DNA from: Escherichia phage Jk06
Reading direction: 5' to 3' (one strand)
DNA length: 46,072 nucleotides
Sequence record: DQ121662.1
Shown here: piece by piece, positions 1 to 46,072 of the stretch
Position numbering within the stretch: position 1 is the stretch's first letter
Layout: every line of letters starts with the position of its first letter
The notes under the pieces: generated by a model
What the model was told of the DNA's origin: nothing
What the model saw: only the letters and a program-made list of their open reading frames with translations
Database searches by the model: none
Position numbers and translations under genes: made by a program

Positions 1-12
1 ACGCGTATATCA

Positions 13-76
13 AATAGCACGATTTGCTAAAGACTACCGCGGCAGCCTTTGCTATAGTTACTCCATCGAAACGAAA
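13..76 (+). promoter_or_regulatory. early promoter module (inverted repeat AATAGCAC-N4-TGCTAA, about 22 nt, TATAGT, CATCGAAACGAAA leader)
   Basis: IR at 13-30, TATAGT at 53-58, leader at 64-76, then RBS TAAGGAAT and ATG at 99. Same architecture recurs throughout the window. Confidence 0.55.
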
Positions 77-24336: not shown

Positions 24337-24386
24337 GTTAGCTTCCTATCGTTTAGTTGTCATTTGCTTCAATTATGATACTGAAT

Positions 24387-24617
24387 TTACTCGCTTCTAC
24401 GCCGACCAGTGTAACCCTTGCCATTCTCAATCCCCTCAGCCGCCTGAATAAGCGCCGCCGCCAGTTTGCGCGCTTGGTAGGCAGTATAGTGAGCAAGCGC
24501 ACATCCGTCGCCATGGTTACCGAAGTTGATATCAATACTCACGATGCCTTCGTAATGTACTGAGGTTGACACCTCTGTGCGAGCGCCTGCGAAATCTTCA
24601 ATAATTACAGCTTTCAT
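24387..24617 (-). CDS. hypothetical protein
   Basis: 76 aa ORF with an IR promoter-like motif at 24674-24692 and an RBS upstream. Confidence 0.4.
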   Translation of the reverse strand: MKAVIIEDFAGARTEVSTSVHYEGIVSIDINFGNHGDGCALAHYTAYQARKLAAALIQAAEGIENGKGYTGRRRSE

Positions 24618-24673
24618 GGTTATTTCCTCTTTGTTGTTGATAGGGTAATCATAGCTGACTACCCAATTTATTG

Positions 24674-24692
24674 TTTAGCAATTTGTGCTATA
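24674..24692 (-). promoter_or_regulatory. inverted-repeat promoter/operator motif copy
   Basis: TTTAGCAATTTGTGCTATA on the plus strand, i.e. AATAGCAC-N4-TGCTAA oriented with minus-strand transcription. Confidence 0.45.
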
Positions 24693-25235
24693 TTCGCCAT
24701 TCAGGAGAGTTTTCGCTTTCCGGTAGAACTGTATGGCCTTCTCCACCTCATCGGCATCATAGCCATGGATTGTTGTTTGCGTTGGCACGTAGTTTGAGCG
24801 TGGCGCGTCGGATCGGTACTGACTGCACCAGTTTTGCACGTCGTCCTTATCCATCCCAACCAGGGCCGGATGAACATAAATCTTATCGCCAATGAGGCAA
24901 ACAATTCCCGCCTCCTGTAGTTCTGGGATGATGTTATTTGTCAGGTCATGCATAATCCCTTCGCGCCCGACGAATGGCTGGACCTTTCGGATTGCCTCGT
25001 ATAGAGATCGAATGCCAACCACTCCATTCCAGCCCTGGCGGCTAATCCTGCTCACTACGACACCGTATTTGTAGCTCAACTTGACGCACAGCATCTCTTC
25101 GGCGCTGGGCCAGAAATTGAATGATTGGCGGTATCCATTAGTATTGATTGCCACACGAAGTGGCGGCAGGTTATCTTGCCTGGCGACTTCCATCACCTGG
25201 TCATCAGTTAACTTATCTTCGTCGAAATCAAACAT
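24675..25235 (-). CDS. short paralogue of the 28217-29808 gene (shares its N-terminal and C-terminal domains, lacks the central P-loop region)
   Basis: N-terminus MFDFDEDKLTDDQVMEVARQDNLPPLRVAINTNGYRQS matches MFDFNDDKLTVEQVMAVAAQDGLPPLRVAINANGYRQS; segment GVVGIRSLYEAIRKV...CLIGDKIYVHP matches GVVGLRSLYEAARKV...CLIGDKVYINP. Confidence 0.5.
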   Translation of the reverse strand: MFDFDEDKLTDDQVMEVARQDNLPPLRVAINTNGYRQSFNFWPSAEEMLCVKLSYKYGVVVSRISRQGWNGVVGIRSLYEAIRKVQPFVGREGIMHDLTNNIIPELQEAGIVCLIGDKIYVHPALVGMDKDDVQNWCSQYRSDAPRSNYVPTQTTIHGYDADEVEKAIQFYRKAKTLLNGEYSTNC

Positions 25236-25777: not shown

Positions 25778-26487
25778 GATGATTCCTCTCGTTGATTGTT
25801 GTTTGTTGCCTCGTTTCGATGAAATGACTATAGCAAAGATTTACGTGTCTATAAATGTATTTTTTTGTTTATTTTAAAATTGATACGCTTTTTTCCCTGC
25901 ATGCCGCATCGTTGCTGGGTGTGTACAGGCGTCTACGTGCGTCTACATATAGATGAGGGGGTTCTAGCTATATCCCCCTATATTTTCCTACAAGGTAGTA
26001 CAATTCCTACAGTGTAGGAATAAAAATAGAAATTTAAGCAAACCAACCTATATAGTAGCGTACAGATGATACGCTATATATACATAATACTATATATAAT
26101 AATAATAATAGTCTAAGTCCTTTATATATAAGGATATTTTAGTGTATATGGATTGTATCAAGGCGTATAAATTGTAAATGTGGATACGGTCGACAATCGG
26201 TAGACAGCGGACTACGCGTATATAAAAGAAGTCTCTCCGCGAGCGATAAAACCAACCAACTATTTGATCCAAACCTCCTTTCATTCAATCCATCCATCCA
26301 TCATTGCCAAACTGGCAACAATCAATAAACCTGTTGCACTCGATGAAATATTGCTTTATGTGTAATAGTCATGCTAATCATCGCAATGCCTGCAACAATC
26401 CATAAATCTGACGAATAGCACTTTTTGCTAAAGACAAATCCACCATGACTGGCTATAGTTTGCCAATCAACAGAGAGGAGAAGAAAC
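25778..26487. other. AT-rich intergenic region with iterons, palindromes and microsatellites between divergent early operons (candidate origin / control region)
   Basis: GCGTCTAC x2, palindrome ATTCCTACAGTGTAGGAAT, (ATA)n, TCCTTTATATATAAGGA, (CCAT)3, TTGCCAAACTGGCAA; no ORF of 60 aa or more. Confidence 0.5.
26414..26459 (+). promoter_or_regulatory. early promoter module (IR plus TATAGT)
   Basis: AATAGCACTTTTTGCTAA at 26414-26431, TATAGT at 26454-26459, RBS GAGGAG and ATG at 26488. Confidence 0.5.
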
Positions 26488-26706
26488 ATGAAAGCGATTA
26501 TTATCAACAACGAAATTAGGTACGACGAAGATTCAATGAGCCTTGCCGAACTTGGCTATCAGATTGGTGAGGAGGTGGAAGTTTACGAGATTGAAGGCTT
26601 CTACATGATGAGTTTAAAGGATCATGTATATGTTGATGGTACTCTTGCAATCTTTCAAGGTGAACAGTTTGTTGTTAGTAATGAAGAAATCAAGGTGGTA
26701 GCATGA
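26488..26706 (+). CDS. hypothetical protein
   Basis: 72 aa ORF with RBS; first gene of a rightward early operon. Confidence 0.45.
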   Translation: MKAIIINNEIRYDEDSMSLAELGYQIGEEVEVYEIEGFYMMSLKDHVYVDGTLAIFQGEQFVVSNEEIKVVA

Positions 26707-26942: not shown

Positions 26943-27095
26943 ATGCTAAAGCCATCTGACTTGAACTATTACGATCTAGAAACCATAGCCAAGTACAGCG
27001 GTAAGGGTTGGCCTGTTGGTGACTACTTCAAAGAAGATTTGATTGAGAGCTTCAACATCGTCCAGAAGGAAATTGCAAAAGCAGCAAAGAAATAG
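26943..27095 (+). CDS. hypothetical small protein (50 aa)
   Basis: ATG overlapping the upstream stop (TAAATG); not in the ORF track because it is shorter than 60 aa. Confidence 0.35.
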   Translation: MLKPSDLNYYDLETIAKYSGKGWPVGDYFKEDLIESFNIVQKEIAKAAKK

Positions 27096-27153
27096 CACGA
27101 ATTGCTAAAGCCCTTCGGGGCTTTTACTGTATATTCATCTCATCGAAACGAAA
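27091..27153 (+). promoter_or_regulatory. early promoter module (IR, terminator hairpin, TATATT, CATCGAAACGAAA leader)
   Basis: IR at 27091-27108, hairpin GCCCTTCGGGGC, TATATT at 27130-27135, leader at 27141-27153, ATG at 27174. Confidence 0.55.
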
Positions 27154-27173
27154 AGTACTAAAGGAAAATAATC

Positions 27174-27527
27174 ATGGCTACTACTATCACAAAGAATTGG
27201 GTTAGCAGTGATAACAAATTATTTCAAGCTCGCGTGAAGGATGGAGTTGAGCAGATTAAAGTCGATGGTAAATGGCAAAACCTAACTGAGCGGGGGCGTT
27301 ACATCAAGACTAAGACTCTTTATGTCACATTTGTTAACCATAAATCAGGAGTATCAAAGTCATTCAAGCAAGGTCGTCGCTATCAGGTAGAAATGACCGC
27401 ATCTCTTGGACAGAACGCTGGTAAAATATTTGATGAAGATGGTGACTCATGGACGCTGATTCGCTCTGAAGATGTTGGATTTACAACTGTTTGCGGAACT
27501 TATAAATTCGAGAGCCAATACAAATGA
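27174..27527 (+). CDS. hypothetical protein
   Basis: 117 aa ORF with RBS AAGGAAA. Confidence 0.45.
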   Translation: MATTITKNWVSSDNKLFQARVKDGVEQIKVDGKWQNLTERGRYIKTKTLYVTFVNHKSGVSKSFKQGRRYQVEMTASLGQNAGKIFDEDGDSWTLIRSEDVGFTTVCGTYKFESQYK

Positions 27528-27718
27528 ATGAGACAGTAAGAATTTACATAACAAAAGATTCAATTTATTGCAAGTCTATACAACACGGCACTAAGTACAG
27601 ATACTGCAAAGATAGAGGCTATTTTTGCGTGGTTGATTTCATTACTAGAAAAGGGTTGCTTGAAACTTTCATAGATAAAATGCCTAGTAATAAGCTATCA
27701 TCTGGCGAAAGGTTTTAA
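27524..27718 (+). CDS. hypothetical protein
   Basis: 64 aa ORF overlapping the upstream stop. Confidence 0.4.
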   Translation: MNETVRIYITKDSIYCKSIQHGTKYRYCKDRGYFCVVDFITRKGLLETFIDKMPSNKLSSGERF

Positions 27719-27720
27719 TT

Positions 27721-27766
27721 AATAGCACTTTTTGCTAATGACACTACCCGCTTCGGCGGGTATATT
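27721..27766 (+). promoter_or_regulatory. early promoter module (IR, hairpin, TATATT)
   Basis: AATAGCACTTTTTGCTAA at 27721-27738, hairpin CCCGCTTCGGCGGG, TATATT at 27761-27766. Confidence 0.5.
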
Positions 27767-27803
27767 TGTTTCCATCAAGAAGACAAACACTAAGGTGAAC
27801 AAA

Positions 27804-27920
27804 ATGAAAAACATCTCTAAAGCAGTTGATGCGGTAATGGAACAAGTAATTAAGTTTGGTTTCTTTGGCTTCATGGGCGCAATCGCTGTTGTAGTTGGCA
27901 AATGTCTGGTTGGTCTTTAA
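27804..27920 (+). CDS. small hydrophobic protein (38 aa, single predicted transmembrane helix)
   Basis: ATG at 27804 with RBS TAAGGTG; sequence MKNISKAVDAVMEQVIKFGFFGFMGAIAVVVGKCLVGL. Confidence 0.35.
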   Translation: MKNISKAVDAVMEQVIKFGFFGFMGAIAVVVGKCLVGL

Positions 27921-27982
27921 TGGCACTTTTTGCTAAAGACCTTAACAACAAAAATTGATATATTCTCTTCATCGAAACGAAA
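27919..27982 (+). promoter_or_regulatory. early promoter module (IR, TATATT, CATCGAAACGAAA leader)
   Basis: IR at 27919-27936, TATATT at 27959-27964, leader at 27970-27982. Confidence 0.55.
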
Positions 27983-28002
27983 TACATTAAAAGGGCTAAA
28001 AA

Positions 28003-28216: not shown

Positions 28217-29808
28217 ATGATAATGTTTGATTTTAATGATGACAAATTGACTGTTGAACAAGTAATGGCTGTTGCCGCTCAGGATGGATTACCTCCTTTA
28301 CGTGTTGCTATTAATGCGAACGGTTATCGCCAGAGCGCATCATTCTGGAAAGCTCCGGTTGAGATTGATTCTACTGGCGACAAGTATCCTGTTATCTCGC
28401 TTGGTAACGACTATGATGTAGTTGGCAAACTATCAAGCAACATTGCTCGTTCTGTTCAGTTTCCTGAATCATCTGCTTATATGCACTTCCTTGGTTGCAT
28501 CTCGGCAGCTATGTTAGGTCGCTTTACGGTTGAGTATCACGGAACTCAACAACCAACATCACTGTATGTAGTGACCAGCCAGCCTCCATCAACTGGTAAA
28601 TCTGCCATTAACTCGCTGTCTCTGGCTCCAATGATTGCAGAGACTGAGCGACTAAACGATCTGCGTAAGCGTGACCGTAAAAAGATTATGGCCAAGCTGT
28701 CGGCTCTGGCTAAAGAAATGAAGCAGGAGAAGTCGCCTTCTGAGATGGCTGGTTTGTTTGAGGAGAAGGAGGAGCTGGAAGATAAGCTCGAGAAACTTTG
28801 CGACATCGTATTCCCTGTATCTGATACTACTCCTGAAGGTCTGGCACGCATTAACCATCGTCAGGGTAGCTTCGCTGTCATCTCGGATGAGGCGACGAGC
28901 GTCAACTCACTGCTGGGCATGACCTATGGTGATGGAACAAAGAAAACAAACAGCGAACTGGTACTTAAGGCCTGGGATGCTGGTAACGTATCTATCGCGC
29001 GTGCGAACGCAGAGAACAACATGAGCTTTATTGCTATGGGGTGTATTTCTGTAATTGCGCAGGATGAAACAATAGTCGCAATCATGAATGCTGGTGCTCG
29101 CGGTATTGGTGTATCCGAACGTTTCTTGCTTGTGCGTGAAAAGTCATTCCTTGGTGAGCGTGTTTTCGTCGATGATAATGGCGAGTCAACATATGAGCCG
29201 ATTGACGGAGCGTGAAGGGCTGATTACTTCCGTCTTTGTTCATGAAATTATGAGTGAGCAAGATGTTAAGTTGACTATTAGTAACTCAGCAATGAAGCAC
29301 CTTAACCGTGCTCGACAGGAAAATGGAGCCACACCTTGCAGATGGCGGTAAGTATTCACACACAATGCTGCGCGGCGCGTTAGGTAAAATGGATAAACAG
29401 GTAATTCGCATTGCTGCAGTTCTTCACACTATCCGTAACTGGTTTAACCCCAATGGCGGTAGTCCGCAGAAGTCCAGGGAGATTGAACTGGAAACCATGC
29501 AAGAGGCTTTGTTGATGTTTGGAGAACTTAGTAAGACTTACTTATCCTCAGCTAACGCAGCTGGTCATGCTGGCGATAACGCTGAGATGAACAAGTTAAT
29601 TGATATCCTTATCAAGCAAGGCAAGAACAGTAAAGGAGTTGTGGGTTTGCGTTCACTTTATGAAGCTGCGCGTAAGGTTCGACCTTTCGAGTCACAGGCT
29701 GGTGTTATGGCTAAAATTAAAGACCACTTACTGCCGATGCTTGATGAGAAAAACTATACCTGCCTGATTGGTGACAAGGTATATATCAATCCACGGCTGC
29801 TGGGGTAA
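28217..29808 (+). CDS. P-loop NTPase-like protein (about 530 aa), reading frame interrupted between about 29215 and 29310; long paralogue of 24675-25235
   Basis: Track ORFs 28217-29215, 29088-29351 and 29308-29808 are contiguous; Walker A-like SQPPSTGKSA; N- and C-terminal segments match the short paralogue. Confidence 0.55.
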
Positions 29809-29812
29809 TTAA

Positions 29813-30148
29813 ATGTTCATCCTTGATGTGTTCAAGTTCTGCGAGAGCTACGAAAAGTTTAACAGGCAGCACCTGGCGGTATTCATTTACCGCCACAAAG
29901 AATGTGAAAGAATGGCTAAGGCAGCTGGAGTTAATGCGCGTTACTTTGCATCATCTGCGTCAAAGGAGTTTCTGGCAAGATGCATGACTGAAGGTTACAT
30001 CGATGGAGTTAATGGCAGTTACTGGAGCAAAGGAAGCACGAAGCGACCTTTCGAATTTAGCTTCAGATGCCTTGGAGGTGAGAGCGATAAGTACACTAAT
30101 GAGATGATGACCATAAAAGAAATGACAGACGACCAACTGTTCGCATAA
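29813..30148 (+). CDS. hypothetical protein
   Basis: 111 aa ORF starting 5 nt after the upstream stop. Confidence 0.4.
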   Translation: MFILDVFKFCESYEKFNRQHLAVFIYRHKECERMAKAAGVNARYFASSASKEFLARCMTEGYIDGVNGSYWSKGSTKRPFEFSFRCLGGESDKYTNEMMTIKEMTDDQLFA

Positions 30149-31923: not shown

Positions 31924-32000
31924 TCTATTTCCTATCTCGTTGTCGATGAAACAAATATAGCGCCTTTCGGCGCTATAGTCTTTAGCAAAAAGTGCTATTT
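31924..32000 (-). promoter_or_regulatory. early promoter module (IR, hairpin, TATATT, CATCGACAACGAG leader)
   Basis: IR TTTAGCAAAAAGTGCTATTT at 31981-32000 (reverse orientation); hairpin AGCGCCTTTCGGCGCT. Confidence 0.5.
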
Positions 32001-32548
32001 ACTACTTCCATTAATTTATTCAAAGAACCATCTATATCACCACTATCTAGTTTCAAATCAACCTCAATCGCACCAGTATTGTAAAGGTATGACCTGGAAT
32101 CACCTGAGAAATCAAAGCCATCCCTATGAAGCCTTACAATCATAACATCAACGCCATTAGATAATAGTGGCTCAATTTCTGAACGCAAAACCACCGTCAG
32201 AAGAAACATAGAATCCATCAACAATCTTGCTGTACAGCCTCTTTCCGAACACGTCATTCCCAAACACTGGCTTCATTACAACTTCGCTAATCCATATCAT
32301 AACTCTCTCGGGGTTTTTCCACCAAGAAATGACTGATGGGACTCCTTGAATGACCTGTCGTCATAATTTTCAATAAATTTATCAAAATCATCTTTTGATA
32401 AAACACCTCTTGCAACATCAAATATTGGTGATTTGAATGATAATTTTTCATCAAAAAAACCAGATGTAACAAGAATATCAGCTAGCGTGTCCTTGCCGCA
32501 ACCCGCTGGACCATTAAGTACGACTAATTTCTTCATTTTATTCCCCAT
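31982..32548 (-). CDS. P-loop nucleotide kinase (dNMP kinase-like), frame interrupted near 32263-32300
   Basis: Walker A LNGPAGCGKDT in ORF 32297-32548; ORF 31982-32263 continues downstream in another frame. Confidence 0.5.
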
Positions 32549-33011
32549 GTGATTCGCAGTCTTTTGGTAAATTTTCGTAGCTTCTTACCTGCATAACACA
32601 GTAACCATTACTCCTTAAGTGTCTTATTACGTTTGGGTTATCCTCAAAAACTATACATTCATCAACTCCGTCTGTATTTTTCTCTAGCCACTCAAGTTTA
32701 ATATCAAAATCCTTTCTGTTATCTTCTCTATTTCTCATAGAGATTTCGCTGTACATTACATTATTTCTTTTAAGCCAGGATACTGTTTCATTCTTACACT
32801 CATCGCTCCTAGATGTGAGCAATACTACACGCTCACCTTTCATATAAAGACTATTCATCATATTTATGATTTGAGTCTTTGGCTCGTCATTCACACATGC
32901 AGAGTTGTAATTCCTCCAAGATTCTGTTAAGTGAAGATTATCTTTAGGCAGTAAATGCTGCCTTTTCTCATTTAAAGATATCGTACCATCTATATCAAAA
33001 ACATAAACCAT
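32538..33011 (-). CDS. HAD-superfamily phosphatase (nucleotidase / polynucleotide-phosphatase-like)
   Basis: N-terminal motif VFDIDGTI (DxDGT) and a later acidic motif; 157 aa. Confidence 0.55.
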   Translation of the reverse strand: MVYVFDIDGTISLNEKRQHLLPKDNLHLTESWRNYNSACVNDEPKTQIINMMNSLYMKGERVVLLTSRSDECKNETVSWLKRNNVMYSEISMRNREDNRKDFDIKLEWLEKNTDGVDECIVFEDNPNVIRHLRSNGYCVMQVRSYENLPKDCESHGE

Positions 33012-33013
33012 TC

Positions 33014-34140
33014 TTACATCCCCGGGCGGTAAATGAATCGACCAATCTCACCAAATTCCTTGTGGTATACGATTACCGCCGCCTGACGATAGCTTCTCCA
33101 TCCACCTCGAGCTGCATAAGCATCTTTACTCGCAAGCGCCGGGTGAACCTCGTCAATACCAAGCGTGCACTCACTTAACGTTGCATGATGGAAGTGCCCC
33201 GAATGACAGTAAACAAACTCACATTCGCCAAAATCTTTACGGAAATCTGTAGCCATTGCTGCCAGTCGACCTTCTGCTTTCTTCATTGTGTGACCATGCG
33301 TGTATCCAAGCAGTGTGGAGCCATAACGAGTCTTGTGCATAATTGCAGGGCTAACATCAACATGAACACGTGGCTCATTATCATAGAATGCAGCCATTGC
33401 AGCACGCAGCCAAATCATCGATGCCTGGTCGTGGTTGCCTTCAATAACCTGAATCTCAACCTCTTTATGTTTCATAAGCATTTTAGTTACTGTTGCTCGC
33501 AGTGATCGAATGGCAACATACACCAACTTAGCAAATCGACTATCCTGATCAAGTACGTGCTTACTGCCGGTGTAACAGCATCAAGACCATCAGAGTGAAG
33601 GAAGTCGCCACCAATCAGTAGCACTGCTTTCTCGGAATTTGGAGCCTTGCTGATTGAGTAATCAAAGTATGAGTTCATCAATTTTTCAGCTGTTGCCGTG
33701 TCGTAGTTCTCGCCAGCTTCGTGAGAGTGGGCCATCATACCAATATGAATGTCAAATACAGGGTAAAGAGTTAATGTATCATCAAAGTTAACATTTTCAT
33801 TTTTAACTAGCTCGGCCTTAGGAAGTTCTGAGCAAAATGCTTCGCGTGCCTTAGTAATAATCTCTTCAAGGCGTTCATTATCAACGCTAGTCTTAACCCA
33901 ACGAATCTTCTCGTTACCTTCTGCATCAATCATGGTTGAAGTGCCTTTAACCATGTATCCATCCGGAACTAGCTTCTTTATGCCTTCGTTTCCGTGGCCT
34001 TCGCCAGATTTTGACAGCTTGCTCCGGCGCAGTTCTACGTTACGAATGTTCATGCCGTACTTCTCTGCGATTGCTTTGTTAGTCATACCGTTTGCCAGTT
34101 CTTCTTTAAGTTGTTCTTTAGTGATTTTAGCGATAGCCAT
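33014..34140 (-). CDS. metallophosphoesterase (calcineurin-like) with N-terminal HTH-like segment, frame interrupted near 33490-33530; true start at ATG 34140
   Basis: Motifs FDIHIG, GDFLHSDG, GNHD and GHTH across track ORFs 33487-34263 and 33014-33526; the first 41 codons of the track ORF lie in the promoter. Confidence 0.6.
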
Positions 34141-34224: not shown

Positions 34225-34298
34225 TGAGCCGCCTCTCGTTTCGATGAACACACTATAAGCCATCCCTGGCGATATGTTTTAACAAAAAGTGCTATTTA
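34225..34298 (-). promoter_or_regulatory. early promoter module (IR variant TTAACA, TATAGT, CATCGAAACGAGAGG leader)
   Basis: IR at 34277-34298 on the plus strand (reverse orientation); a 20-codon hydrophobic mini-ORF lies in the leader. Confidence 0.5.
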
Positions 34299-34908
34299 AC
34301 TTCTTTTAGCCAGTAATCAAGAAACTCAGTTTCAAGCGCAGCAATTGCTGGAGAATACTCACTAGGCATCATCATATTGCAGCCAGGTGAGTAGTACATC
34401 AACTCAGCCTTACCAATCTCAATTTGCACCAGTACATCGAGGTAGTCCGGAGGAATCCACTCAGAGAAAGGAATCTTCCGATAAGGCTTCTCACCAAAAA
34501 ACACAACCTGATACTTACTCTCATCAAAATCTAGACCAGAGTAAATTCATTTCTTCGCACCTTTCTTAAATATCTTCTTACCTTCCTCGCGATACATTGC
34601 GAGGCTAGGCGTTGCTGGAACTCTTACATACTTGCGTGGCCGCTGGTTCATATAACTAAACTTCCCATTGAAAACTACAGATATGTCATCAATATCAAAG
34701 TATTTACCTATCATCTTGATGTCATCCTGCAATCCCGCCTCTCCACAATGCGCCCATACAGCGGCGCGTCCGCTTTCAACTATCATAGGCCGTAAGCCAT
34801 TTTTAAATATTCTCGAGCGCACATCCAGCAATATTCAGATCCAGTCTTAACTGCGTCATTTGCGAAAGACTGCGCAATCTCGAACATCTCTTTGTCTATA
34901 ATTTTCAT
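34292..34908 (-). CDS. hypothetical protein, reading frame interrupted (track ORFs 34547-34831 and 34292-34504 plus N-terminal fragment from ATG 34908)
   Basis: Three co-linear ORF fragments in different frames downstream of promoter module 34939-34984. Confidence 0.35.
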
Positions 34909-35786: not shown

Positions 35787-35800
35787 TTTGTTTCTCTCTC

Positions 35801-35863
35801 TTCGTTTCGATGAAGTAACTATATCGCATCCTTGCGAAATCTCTTTAGCAATTCGTGCTATTT
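35801..35863 (-). promoter_or_regulatory. early promoter module (IR, TATAGT, CATCGAAACGAA leader)
   Basis: IR at 35844-35863, TATAGT on the minus strand at 35818-35823, leader at 35801-35812. Confidence 0.55.
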
Positions 35864-36230
35864 GATAGATAATCTGTAATTGCCAACTTAAACATTTCAA
35901 ACCCATAACAGATTGCCGCGTAACCTCCTGTTTCTGATACCTTTTCCAGAAACTCCTTTTGCTCCTTTGAAACCTTGCTATCTGATTTTATTGCTCGCTT
36001 AAGCTCTATTGCGGCAAAGCCATTTGGTCCAATCAGTAGAATATCTGATACACCCTTAATTACTCCCTCCTGCTTGTCCTTCATTGCTGTGCCGATAGAC
36101 TTGAGACCTTCATTCTTCACGTGAAAAGCAAATATCTCTGGATGGTTGTGGCGAACCCAAGCTATTGAATTTATTTGGTGAACAACCTCTTTAGCCTGTC
36201 AGTGCTTGTTTTGTCGTGAAAAACCTTAAC
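35845..36230 (-). CDS. VRR-NUC-type PD-(D/E)xK nuclease, N-terminal frame interruption near 36120-36170
   Basis: Core GVSDILLIGPNGFAAIELK...EQKEFL...GGYAAICYGFE; open frame extends upstream of the track start, with ATG 36230 in another frame. Confidence 0.5.
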
Positions 36231-36232
36231 CA

Positions 36233-38178
36233 TTAGAACTCCTTATTAGCAATATTATCGCCACCTTTAGCGGTCTTGCGGTGAGTTACCCTCTTAGGAG
36301 CATGGATGTACTGCGAATACTCCATAATCTTGCGAGCATTGCGATATGCAGCCATATATCGCTTAGCGTTCATGTCGACTACGTGACCTTTAATTCCATT
36401 GTTCAACCAGAGTGTTTTACATACTCGATGGTCAGACTCTACGAAGAAAACCTCATGAGCTTTAAATGTCCCACCCATGCCATCATCAAGGATGTAGTTG
36501 TAGATGATTCCTGATTGGTTCTTTGTTAGCCCAACCTTAAAGTCAACAACATCAAACCAGTCGTTCTTGCGGTAATGTTTGCCGCTTAACTTGAGATTTG
36601 GATCAAGCAAAGTGCAATCGCAACCCCTACAAATCTTAGCTGCAACGTCATTCTGAACTCCGCAGCCTTTAACGATAACCTTTCCGGTTCGTGGGTCTTT
36701 CTGGTCTTCACATGTGCGACTAACCCAGAAATATTCGCAGCGATTATTATTCTCATCAATATGCATGCAACGTCGAGCAAAGAAGCTGTTCTCTGTTCCG
36801 CATACTGGACACTGCTTAGTCTCCTTGCCATTATCTTTCGTAGCTGATATTGAGCCTGCTCAAGAATTGGATTGAAGTACAATGATGCCATAGAGTCCAT
36901 CGTTCCTGCGAAGTCCAGTACCAAATGGTCATTCTTGACCATTCCTTTATCTTCATGGAGCTTCTTAAGCTTACGCATTCCTCGACCAAGTAGCTGAACC
37001 AGGAGCGTAAGGCTACCAATCTTACGCAGAATAACGCTTGTATCCCATGTAGGCACATTTACGCCAGTGGTTAGCGCCTGAACCTGAAAGCAATATTTAA
37101 TCTCCCCGCTAAAGCACTTATCAAGCAACTCCTTGCGCTGCTTCTCGCCAGTCTTTCCAGTTATAATGCAGAACTTTTCACCTTCAGGAAGGTAACTTGC
37201 GGCTTCGTGGCAATGGCGCTCACCTGCGCATGTTACCAGAACTCCATTCCTGTCTTTCGCGGCAAGCCATACTTTCTTCATTATCTCCGCTGTCATTGTT
37301 CCAGATGCCTGAATCTTTTTATCCATGGCTTCAAGCTGGGCTTTAGTGTAATCCTGAACACCATCTTCAGATGATGCATCAAACTCTGACAGGTCGTAAC
37401 CAACGCCATCAGTAGCACCAAAGTTTGTCGGAACCACGGAACCGAACTCGACCAGGTAGTTTGTATCGATATTTGTGACCGTCTCACGCCAAAATCCCAA
37501 CTCCTTTTTATTTTCAACAACTATTGGCGTAGTTCCACGGAAAGGAGAACCAGTCAGTCCAAAGATACGAAGATTCTTGCCATACTTAGCACGGCAGCGC
37601 TCCATTAAAGTCAGTATGATTACCGTATACTGGCTACGTCCCTTATCTGATGCCTGTTGCGCAGTCTCATTGTTATCTAGAGCCTCAGCCACATCCTGGT
37701 CATCAACATGGTGACACTCATCAATAGCAACTACCGCAGGGCAGAAATCGCCAAGTGACCTCTCAAGCCCGCCAACTACTGTACCCTCAGAGCCAACCAC
37801 CACAGGGAAATAAGATGATTTTATTCCAAGCCCAGAGCAATAGATGGAGTTAGGAACCCCGTAATCAGAAATCTCAGAAGCATTCTGGCTAACCAGCTCT
37901 GCCTGACGAGCAAGAACAAGCATAGGCAAGCCAAGCTCAGAGCAACGCTTAGCAACCATACCAAAAACCAGAGTCTTACCAGCAGAAACTGAAGCCATTG
38001 CGATAAATGGATGCTCATAGCGACTAATGCGCTTTGCAATCTCATTGTACATAACACACTGATAGCTATACGGAACCATACCGTTAGAAGAGGTGAATTT
38101 AGTTTGAATCTCTTTAATCTTATCTTCGCCCAATTCTTCAATCTGTTTTTGTATTGTTTTCAATCGGTTTTCCATAAT
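36233..38178 (-). CDS. SF2 DNA helicase with C-terminal zinc-ribbon region, frame interrupted near 36800-36840; start taken at MENRLKTIQ
   Basis: Motif I SVSAGKT, motif II DECHH; Cys-rich C-terminal continuation CPVCGTEN...CRGCDC in ORF 36233-36766; the first 16 track codons overlap a promoter module. Confidence 0.75.
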
Positions 38179-38267: not shown

Positions 38268-38741
38268 ATGGATTCAATTGACAAGCGTACTCTTAATGGT
38301 AACAACGGAACAGTTCGCACAGAAGACAAGAAGCCGCGTAAGCGTCCATCAGGTTACTATGTACTAAAGGATGAAGTGAGAGCAGGATTAAGGTCGCGCC
38401 TTGAGATTGTATTGGACTTCTACGGCAGCAAGGCCAATCTAGCTAAGCAGCTAAAGGTTACGCGCCAGGCTGTAGAAGAATGGTGTAAGCGGGGAATGAT
38501 TTCAGCTCGCGGCGCACAGCTTGCGCATAATCGATATAAGCGAACTGGCGAGGGGTTCAGGGCTACATTCTGCCGACCTGATTTACAGTTCGACGGTAAC
38601 GGCAAGCCTCTAACACTGCGATGCAAGAAGCGTCAGATGCTTCGAGTTGTTACAGAAGCTGAGCTAGCAACCAAGCCGCAGCGTAAATCATGGCGAAAGG
38701 TTAAGAAAGAAAGAGAAGAAGCACGAAAAGCTAAAGAGTAA
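38268..38741 (+). CDS. HTH DNA-binding protein (Cro/YdaS-like transcriptional regulator) with basic C-terminal tail
   Basis: Helix-turn-helix-like segment LAKQLKVTRQAVEEWCKRGMIS; RBS GAGGTGAG; 157 aa. Confidence 0.55.
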   Translation: MDSIDKRTLNGNNGTVRTEDKKPRKRPSGYYVLKDEVRAGLRSRLEIVLDFYGSKANLAKQLKVTRQAVEEWCKRGMISARGAQLAHNRYKRTGEGFRATFCRPDLQFDGNGKPLTLRCKKRQMLRVVTEAELATKPQRKSWRKVKKEREEARKAKE

Positions 38742-42025: not shown

Positions 42026-42508
42026 TTGGAGTTAATAGTAATGCTCTTACTGCAGTATAACGTGATGGCATCAGGAGAACACAGTGTCTCATTGTTAATA
42101 TCAGCATCAGGTGAAACAAGAGTTTTATCAGGTGTGTTGCCAGTCTCATCAAGAATGGTCAACGGTGGTACTTACAATATTGCTCTTGGTTTTGATGTAT
42201 CTGGTAAGGTTTGGTGGAGCATCTTAAACCTGAATACTGGATTTAGAGTTAGAAGGTCATTTGATTCTCAGTATATAGATATTGATGTCAGACCTATACT
42301 AACAACAGCTGGTAACTATGTAACCATGTATTCAGGTCAAGGCGCTGGTGATGTAGCTTGCTCTGGATATGGCTTTGGTGTTTACGTTGGCAGCTATTCA
42401 GATGAGTCTGATTATTGCGCTTCAAGATACTATTCGCTTAAAGGTGGTGTTGATTTGACAAAACAATCAGTATTTTTGAGTTTGAATGGTGATGTAACGT
42501 CACAATAA
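42026..42508 (+). CDS. hypothetical protein downstream of tail fibre gene (possible fibre-associated protein)
   Basis: 160 aa ORF, Gly/Ser/Tyr-rich; ends at a bidirectional terminator. Confidence 0.4.
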   Translation: MELIVMLLLQYNVMASGEHSVSLLISASGETRVLSGVLPVSSRMVNGGTYNIALGFDVSGKVWWSILNLNTGFRVRRSFDSQYIDIDVRPILTTAGNYVTMYSGQGAGDVACSGYGFGVYVGSYSDESDYCASRYYSLKGGVDLTKQSVFLSLNGDVTSQ

Positions 42509-42536
42509 AAAAGCCCCGAAAGGGGCTTTATCTTTT
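42506..42536. terminator. bidirectional intrinsic terminator AAGCCCCGAAAGGGGCTT
   Basis: Same hairpin as 1314-1331, flanked by an A-run and a T-rich tract, between convergent genes. Confidence 0.6.
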
Positions 42537-43670: not shown

Positions 43671-43733
43671 TTGTTGTCGATGAGGTAACTATACCCCATC
43701 GATTTAATACCGTTTTAGCTATTCGTGCTATCT
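43671..43733 (-). promoter_or_regulatory. early promoter module (IR, TATAGT, CATCGACAACAAAG leader)
   Basis: IR at 43714-43733, TATAGT on the minus strand at 43688-43693, leader at 43671-43682. Confidence 0.55.
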
Positions 43734-43845
43734 TCGTACTTCTTCATCTCATACTCAGGAACTTGCAGTTCCATCTCTGTTTCGCCAAATCCGTAACCAG
43801 GCCAAATATCAAGTTTCTTGCATTGCTTGTATGTGGATAGGGCGC

Positions 43846-45582: not shown

Positions 45583-45684
45583 ATCTATTCTCCCTCGTTA
45601 CCGCTCCCGAGTTTGAGGAGCGATTTCATTTGTATCTACCATTTTTTGGTAGATAGACGCAGCACCATTGCTGCCTGTAAGTGC

Positions 45685-45729
45685 ACTATACCCAATCATG
45701 TCGTATACGTTTTGATTATTCGTGCTATT
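45685..45729 (-). promoter_or_regulatory. promoter module variant upstream of Rha-like gene
   Basis: IR-like TTGATTATTCGTGCTATTT at 45712-45729; TATAGT on the minus strand at 45685-45690; about 100 nt leader with a hairpin. Confidence 0.4.
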
Positions 45730-45864
45730 TTGTATATCGGTGTAAAACGCACCCAAATACGCTTTGAGACTTCGCACGCCGCATGGATGCTGAGTGTAAC
45801 TCTTGTAACTAATGTATCCACCAAATTTGCACCCTATCTATATCTATATGCATTTAATCCTTAA

Positions 45865-46072
45865 CAGGAAATCAAACATAGTCTTTTAGAAAAACACAAC
45901 AACATAGCTATAGAGAGTAGTTACAAGGTATACATAGTAACATATATAATAATAATAATACTCTAAACCCTTATTATATAAGGATTTATAAATGTAACCA
46001 ATGCGTATCTGCGCGTAAAAAGCGTATACAATTTTCCGCGGATGAGATTGTATACATCGAGTTACATCGGTT
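45865..46072. other. second AT-rich repeat region sharing about 45 bp with 26093-26138
   Basis: ATATATAATAATAATAATA...TCTAAACCCTTATTATATAAGGATTTATA at about 45943-45985 closely resembles 26093-26138. Confidence 0.45.

Follow-up and report, generated by a model that had tools for sequence, protein, structure and literature searches.

The window analysed here, meaning the whole stretch of 46,072 nucleotides deposited for Escherichia phage Jk06 (DQ121662.1), belongs by BLAST against deposited phages to the family Drexlerviridae, genus Rogunavirus, with Rogue1, AHP42 and UDF157lw as its relatives. Two transcription units diverge from region A (25778-26487): the leftward one carries small early genes, a tRNA, the terminase and the structural genes, and the rightward one further small genes together with a DUF3987 helicase. 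Region B (45583-46072 together with 1-98) separates the leftward Rha-recE-erf-ssb operon from a rightward cor-like lipoprotein gene. A reading made from the letters alone (hereafter the sequence-only reading) had described region A as AT-rich, which agrees with a GC content of 0.365 (genome 0.44, core 0.16). The motifs it had named are all in place: GCGTCTAC as a direct repeat with 10-bp spacing (25929-25946, forward strand, copies at 25929 and 25939), ATTCCTACAGTGTAGGAAT at 26003, the (ATA)n tracts at 26092-26110 and 45942-45960, TCCTTTATATATAAGGA at 26118, (CCAT)3 at 26290 and TTGCCAAACTGGCAA at 26304. Considered one by one, the 19-nt palindrome and the repeat shared between regions A and B are the only features that exceed chance; TTGCCAAACTGGCAA, with its 6-bp arms, and the doubled GCGTCTAC do not do so on their own. 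Region A had also been described as free of ORFs. Mechanical ORFs of 50-64 aa do overlap it, and Rogue1 annotates two such small ORFs, while distant relatives carry no such annotations. None is conserved as a protein, and we rejected them as genes because their amino-acid identity is lower than the DNA identity.

Jk06 and Rogue1 are collinear and share 95-99% identity along most of the genome, apart from a few replaced segments. The two ends of the Jk06 record are contiguous in Rogue1 (299 nt, 99.7%) and join there without a gap, so the record represents a complete, circularly permuted genome that was opened inside the second copy of the repeat. The conjecture that the window is a full genome whose second copy abuts a promoter is therefore borne out, with the promoter motif at 12-60. 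Against Rogue1, single-nucleotide indels are frequent throughout the Jk06 genome (one stretch of 10.7 kb with 98.9% identity has 12 such gaps). They suggest an error-prone assembly, so that exact repeat lengths in Jk06 should not be over-read. The DUF3987-type DNA helicase (28217-29808) is split into ORFs of 332 aa and 166 aa, with single-base insertions at 29235 and 29320; the same helicase is intact in Rogue1 (gp66, 527 aa), and the split probably reflects misassembly and not a pseudogene. The cor-like lipoprotein gene (99-345), to the right of the second copy, is frameshifted by a 1-nt insertion at 132 compared with Rogue1 gp40, which destroys the reading frame of the signal peptide and lipobox. 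Segments of Jk06 without close similarity to Rogue1 are found at 24359-25197, 26349-26703, 27153-27721 and 31928-33619, and hardly anything in the phage collection matches 31928-33000. Jk06 is a mosaic, in which region B is Rogue1-like and the left part of region A is closest to AHP42, BECP10 and UDF157lw.

A module present twice per genome

The sequence-only reading had drawn attention to a stretch of ~45 bp that recurs in both regions, each time between divergent units. The recurrence and its setting are real, and the stretch is the core of a larger module of ~190 bp that is present twice. Compared directly, the two regions share a direct repeat of 68 nt with 82% identity (26079-26146 and 45929-45996), and blastn-short within the genome returned 57 nt at 86% with E = 2.8e-8. 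With relatives aligned, the homology reaches ~185-190 bp. This similarity exceeds simple AT-richness, and both copies lie internally in the relatives rather than in a terminal repeat produced by assembly. Judged from its sequence, the duplicated element is a cis-acting DNA module with two copies per genome.

Copy A spans ~186 bp (26041-26226, forward strand). Its paralogue, copy B, lies 19.85 kb away on the same strand, running from 45891 to the end of the record at 46072 and ending across the circular junction at 1-10. Each copy has an AT-rich core (26075-26140, forward strand, GC ~0.16, in copy A; 45929-45996 in copy B), in which TATACA..ATATATAATAATAATAAT is invariant. Four phased words follow. 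In copy A (26143-26176, forward strand), these are TGTA at 26143, TGTA at 26154, CGTA at 26164 and TGTA at 26173, with spacings of 11, 10 and 9, and in copy B they are TGTA at 45993 and CGTA at 46004, 46014 and 46023. The distal word TACGCGTAT, which is conserved in all A and B copies, closes module A at 26213-26221 (forward strand) and spans 46072 and 1-8 in copy B.

The blocks common to 26 distinct aligned copies are, in order, TAC(A/G)..ATACA, the invariant ATAATAATAATAAT, TAA, TT..TATATA, four YGTR words and a distal (T/A)ACG(C/T)GTAT. The YGTR words stand at offsets 7, 18, 28 and 37/38 in essentially all of these copies, giving spacings of 11, 10 and 9-10 bp; in Sf12 all four read GGCGTA. 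The true repeated words are YGTA/GCGTAT rather than the two copies of GCGTCTAC, which had been taken for iterons. The GCGTCTAC repeat is lineage-specific and absent even from Rogue1, where the site reads GCGTAC..CCGTAT at the same spacing.

We searched for the module with a local nhmmer profile, because blastn with the 101-nt core recovered only 4 phages owing to low-complexity filtering. The profile search, which included Msk, SU57, a Veterinaerplatzvirus and TH27, found exactly two copies, on the same strand and in the same two spacers, in all whole genomes of Rogunavirinae, Braunvirinae and Nouzillyvirus examined, with E-values of 1e-10 to 1e-34 for the copies of the relatives. Rogue1 and the distant phage Rtp, for instance, have two copies each, one per homologous spacer and on the same strand. 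AHP24 and Sf12, represented by partial loci whose A regions were missed by megablast, also carry an A-type copy. Conservation of the B block (165-183 bp) is 78-100% across 133 phage records, including those in which the neighbouring Rha gene is missing or different, and copy B is better conserved than copy A. The similarity of the A core is 0.76-0.91 to B cores from the same subfamily and 0.58-0.78 to B cores from the other one. In IMG/VR, single-protein searches with the flanking genes gave 2-3 loci each. An exact scan for the core matched only T1-like viral contigs; it had no match in one genome per bacterial species, and BLAST of block B against plasmids gave none. The distribution of the core in bacterial genomes and plasmids therefore provides no evidence that satellites or plasmids use it.

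Duplex stability and lineage-specific words

Nearest-neighbour duplex stability was computed genome-wide for segments of 60 bp and 100 bp. Core A is the least stable 60-bp duplex of Jk06 (-56.6 kcal/mol; genome mean -80.7, sd 4.8), and core B, at 45933-45993, is the second least stable (-58.8 kcal/mol), with third place at -64.9. The cores rank first and second at both segment lengths in eight genomes (Jk06, Rogue1, Rtp, SU57, Msk, Veterinaerplatzvirus, T1 and TLS), ~5 SD from the mean and with a clear gap before the third. The minima lie at 214-274 and 30009-30069 in T1 and at 216-276 and 28822-28882 in TLS. BLAST detected no sequence similarity between the spacers of these two phages and the Jk06 modules. 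T1 and TLS have their own blocks shared between A and B, and all copies of TATATATA in T1 (8/8) are located in its two spacers. Minima that recur without sequence similarity indicate that an architecture of two easily melted sites has been kept across four subfamilies and Nouzillyvirus despite sequence turnover.

The words are likewise concentrated in the spacers. Half of the Jk06 copies of GCGTAT (8/16) fall in the two spacers, where 0.25 would be expected, and GCGTATA and ACGCGTA occur only there. T1 is enriched in TGTAACA (6/6 in the spacers) and TLS in GTGAACA (4/8), against ~2.5% expected. Each lineage word is enriched in its own lineage only, whereas TGTATA is enriched in all four, and the word sites are inverted around the core in both regions. 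The lineage-specific words together with the concerted evolution of A and B imply a putative phage-encoded, sequence-specific binder that would be common to both sites and co-evolve with them.

A cumulative GC-skew plot had been suggested as a check. The skew does turn at A and B, but it also turns near 38.2 kb, tracking gene strand. The minima at A and B cannot be separated at all from the effect of divergent transcription, and we therefore dropped GC skew as origin evidence.

The pac region

The right half of region A holds a block found in A-type regions only and conserved across subfamilies (26227-26412, reverse strand). It contains AAAAYCAAC, TCCATCCATC, which is the (CCAT)3 feature, TTTCATTCA, two copies of GCAACAATC and TTGCC-N-GGCAA. 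Conservation across subfamilies is strong over 26250-26436, a stretch that is absent from copy B. GCAACAATCAAWAAAC within the block overlaps the 3' end of TTGCCAAACTGGCAA, and GCAACAATC occurs in the genome only at 26315-26323 and 26392-26400.

The physical ends of three relatives map to a narrow zone of this block (26247-26271, reverse strand). In the UDF157lw record, the start had been moved to the terminus given by PhageTerm (PMC10838988), and position 1 corresponds to 26271 of Jk06. For MSK, one significant terminus is reported, at forward-strand position 36,862 (PMC8421802), which aligns to ~26265. The start of SU57 was chosen by PhageTerm, which according to the authors gave several possible ends (PMC7718038), and position 1 of that record aligns to ~26247. 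All three ends imply leftward packaging, through module A toward terS. Because they fall at 26247-26271, the right half of region A, including (CCAT)3 and TTGCCAAACTGGCAA, is the pac region as judged from these relatives. The suggestion that the spacer serves packaging thus holds for this half, while the partition role suggested alongside it found no support. The T1 record starts with a 2.8-kb terminal repeat, inside the word GCAACAATC of the same conserved block, and T1 has this word twice, at the record junction and at 27-35. The records of Rtp, Rogue1 and TH27 start at ~26342-26355 in Jk06 coordinates. We regard GCAACAATC as a candidate recognition word for the small terminase. According to the MSK paper, Wietzorrek linked 'five repeats of ATATA' to the T1 pac.

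The Jk06 pac region resembles known headful pac sites (P22, SPP1 and T1 pac) in being a unique block with unidirectional packaging toward terS, and the ends of the relatives lie within ~25 bp of each other. The T1 terminal repeat starts in the block that corresponds to it. Unlike headful pac sites inside or next to terS, the Jk06 pac lies 3.5-8 kb upstream of that gene. The likeness concerns only 26227-26412 and not the duplicated module.

Promoters and other motifs around the modules

Outward promoters bound both regions. On the left of region A, a leftward promoter-like site, TTTATA-N17-TATAGT with a TG and the conserved leader CATCGAAACGA (25811-25855, reverse strand), would drive the early small genes and then the terminase and structural genes. 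On the right, the promoter-associated repeat AATAGCAC-N3-TTGCTAAAGACA..TATAGT (26413-26460, forward strand) precedes the gene at 26488. Region B has a leftward repeat (AAATAGCACGAATAATCA..TATAGT; 45680-45731, reverse strand) before the Rha-recE-erf-ssb operon, and a rightward repeat with the CATCGAAACGA leader (12-75, forward strand) before the cor-like gene, directly abutting module B. These belong to a genome-wide repeat, AATAGCAC-N3-TTGCTAAAGAC ... TATAGT ... CATCGAAACGA, which has ~15 sites oriented with transcription, among them 12-75, 26413-26460, 27090-27162, 27720-27767, 27918-27991, 31943-32004, 34234-34311, 35800-35877 and 43672-43734. A 21-nt intergenic repeat of the T1 family, aaATAGCACnnnTTGnTAAAA, has been described for TLS (PMC11447400). 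The repeats bounding both regions (12-43, 26413-26444 and 45708-45731) are the same element, which is already described, is present ~15 times per genome and is distinct from the module; it may act as a promoter, an UP element or a factor site.

The sequence-only reading had favoured origins or packaging sites rather than promoters. Control at the level of DNA, and not of coding sequence or RNA, agrees with our data. Excluding promoters went too far, since the promoter-associated repeat known from the T1 family occurs twice, facing outward, in each region. The core itself is not supported as a plain promoter. TATACA-N16-AATAAT is present in both module copies, but counts of sigma-70 hits do not exceed those in shuffled sequences, and all four operons that flank the modules already carry a promoter repeat. 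A fair TTACAW-N18-TATAAT pair was found only in B-type copies.

Two further features lie on the left side of core A. The word TTCCTACA, present only in A-type regions, occurs three times at 25985-26021 (no strand assigned), including the perfect 19-nt palindrome at 26003-26021, and these are three of the four copies in the genome. The Veterinaerplatzvirus shows compensatory changes at this site, TTCTGACA..TGTCAGAA, which suggests a putative site for a dimeric protein. At the left edge of core A, the inverted repeat TAGCGTA-N7-TACGCTA (26056-26076, no strand assigned) looks like an operator; e4/1c has the compensated pair TGGCGTA..TACGCCA, and B-type copies have no counterpart. In region B, a perfect inverted repeat (TCTACCA-TTTTTT-GGTAGA region, 45633-45655) is located in the leader just upstream of the Rha start.

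Candidate word-binding proteins

A gene for a Cro-like HTH protein (38268-38741) is located next to the primase gene. The protein shares 85% identity between Rogue1 and Rtp, which share their words, and 41-46% with T1 and TLS, whose words differ; the putative recognition helices also differ in T1 and TLS. In the same comparison, where the HTH protein gives 85/46/41%, the identities of the DUF3987 helicase are 90/55/72%, so that it tracks the words partly. The identity of the primase does not track them, and that of TerS (63/56/49) does not do so particularly well. The structural model of the HTH protein is confident (pLDDT 88.6) and matches all-alpha Cro proteins (Xfaso-1 and N15 Cro). On these comparisons and this model, the Cro-like HTH protein is a candidate word binder, as a lead only. 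The HTH protein also has a basic N-terminus of low confidence and a conserved C-terminal extension with nearly invariant Cys102 and Cys119. The homologues recovered were all on contigs of at most ~53 kb, many of them of 45-53 kb, which suggests that the family is confined to Drexlerviridae-like phages. A sequence search with the DUF3987 helicase against PDB chains returned no match.

Discussion

An origin-like element is the best match for the modules, which combine the lowest duplex stability in the genome, conserved family-wide as a physical property, with a phased array in fixed register, lineage-specific words and a position between divergent promoters. We therefore tentatively read them as origin-like unwinding elements with an iteron array, to which we assign a probability of roughly 45%. 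Phased direct repeats and an adjacent, easily unwound AT-rich segment are both features by which origins are recognised; the YGTR words recur at about one helical turn, and the cores are the two least stable duplexes in eight genomes. From this anatomy, we infer unwinding, protein binding and replication initiation at the modules. The layout presents an extremely easily melted AT core, then four words one helical turn apart in fixed register, then a distal palindromic word. A phage-encoded, sequence-specific protein might occupy the phased words, possibly the Cro-like HTH protein encoded beside the primase or the helicase itself. Negative supercoiling from divergent transcription could help the core to open, and the phage helicase of the DUF3987 type and the Zn-ribbon primase might then be loaded. 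Copy A directly precedes the region of headful pac recognition and cutting, and copy B a promoter.

A more far-reaching version of this reading is that the modules are genuine, previously unrecognised replication origins of the whole T1 family (Drexlerviridae). They would form a conserved two-origin system that is opened by a lineage-specific DNA-binding protein of the phage together with early divergent transcription, with one origin coupled to pac within ~130-230 bp of the first-packaged end. We consider this version possible but somewhat less probable than the origin-like character itself. Several observations speak against an origin. At 4-6 bp the words are short, (ATA)n is more strictly invariant than meltability would require, the best co-varying candidate has a Cro-type fold typical of transcription regulators, and AT-rich spacers between divergent promoters may be regulatory. 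By eye, we found no conserved DnaA box in the modules (one 8/9 match at 26179-26187 occurs in close relatives only and is altered in e4/1c) and no canonical IHF core. A recognised initiator protein was not identified. The searchable literature yielded no experimental replication, origin or TSS data for T1-like phages, and recent papers on the family found no origin (TLS 2024, PMC11447400; SU57 2020, PMC7718038).

T1 is a classical T phage and a notorious laboratory contaminant, whose pac has until now been placed only roughly. Our analysis offers two precise, family-wide candidate origins, a candidate binder, a 25-bp zone of pac ends and candidate recognition words. The modules and the pac zone could serve as landmarks that help to open and annotate Drexlerviridae genomes in a consistent way and to engineer these phages while sparing essential cis elements.

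Among known systems, the modules resemble the iteron-plus-DUE origins of lambda and of iteron plasmids in having phased tandem repeats beside the most easily melted AT segment, lineage-specific repeats that imply a cognate encoded binder, and transcription nearby. The repeats of those origins are 17-22 bp long, as opposed to 4-6 bp in the modules, and an O/Rep-type initiator was not recognised in Jk06. Unlike those origins, the putative origin module of Jk06 is present twice per genome and lies outside any replication gene. Bacillus phage SPP1, a virulent siphophage with pac-type headful packaging, provides a two-site precedent, in which the origin-like sites oriL and oriR are bound by one phage protein, G38P, before recombination-driven concatemers form (PMC5615212). 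SPP1 differs from Jk06 in sequence, host and proteins, all of which are unrelated, and its oriL lies inside gene 38. The satellite phage P4, with its alpha protein, also has two cis sites, ori and crr, which carry short octamer-class repeats. The TLS word GTGAACA/TGTTCAC presumably resembles the P4 iteron, and the primase of the T1 family shares the Zn_Ribbon_Prim domain with P4 alpha-type primase-helicases. Unlike P4 alpha, the Jk06 primase is a stand-alone protein of 307 aa without helicase and DNA-binding domains, and the helicase is of the DUF3987 type.

The main rival, which we consider unlikely though not mutually exclusive with the origin-like reading, holds that the modules are operator arrays for the Cro-like HTH regulator, switching the two divergent early promoter pairs; the AT core could then provide an UP-like element, a nucleoid-protein site or flexible spacing. 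In favour of this rival, each module is flanked precisely by a divergent promoter pair, the distal word of copy B directly adjoins the promoter repeat, copy B carries the fair TTACAW-N18-TATAAT pair, and the HTH protein has a Cro-type fold and an identity that tracks the words. However, the ~13 other promoter repeats all lack the words and the AT core, the words are tandem direct repeats and not Cro-style palindromes, and pac separates copy A from the rightward promoter, which is ~190 bp away. An operator would also not need stability minima at the genome-wide extreme, kept in five lineages despite sequence turnover.

The proximity of copy A to the packaging ends (26-50 bp from the mapped ends, within the first DNA packaged) might alternatively indicate an accessory of packaging, namely a site of small-terminase binding or bending that enhances pac, with copy B as a pac-like site that is either additional or vestigial. 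Bent AT-rich DNA does occur in known pac sites such as SPP1 pacL/pacR, and the several possible ends given for SU57 could be accommodated. We consider this improbable, given that copy B is the better conserved copy and has none of the pac-specific motifs (GCAACAATC, AAAAYCAAC and TCCATCCATC), that MSK has one significant terminus and that the identity of TerS does not track the words especially well.

The position of copy B at the head of the recE-erf-ssb operon, the concerted evolution of the A and B cores and the mosaic boundaries near the modules among relatives might suggest entry points for recombination or recombination-dependent replication (RecE/Erf/SSB), or homogenising hot spots, rather than classical origins. 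We give this explanation little credence, because the phased array in fixed register and the lineage words point to a site-specific binder, and the apparent mosaic boundaries may just mark where conservation begins.

A chance similarity of AT-rich low complexity, an assembly or terminal-repeat artefact, a structured RNA or a small gene could be invoked in view of the (ATA)n/TATATA composition of the core, the 1-nt indels and the small ORFs annotated in Rogue1, but any of these is extremely improbable against the E-values within the genome and in the relatives, the internal position of the copies in different contexts in all relatives and the contiguous junction. A terminal-repeat artefact of assembly is contradicted by the divergence of the copies, which are only 82% identical and both internal in the relatives.

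Rfam contained no credible family match for the module, and folding z-scores of -0.4 to -1.3 indicated no excess structure. The TCCTT/AAGGA palindrome of region A, with its CCTT/AAGG stem, is not kept in Braunvirinae, where it is replaced by GGTTG..ATAGA without compensation, so that a hairpin is not the selected feature. On these grounds, a reading as RNA or hairpin was rejected. Elsewhere in the genome, near-identical (93%) bidirectional terminator hairpins, AAAAAGCCCCGAAAGGGGCTT, are located at 1311-1339 and 42508-42536, at two points where transcription converges.
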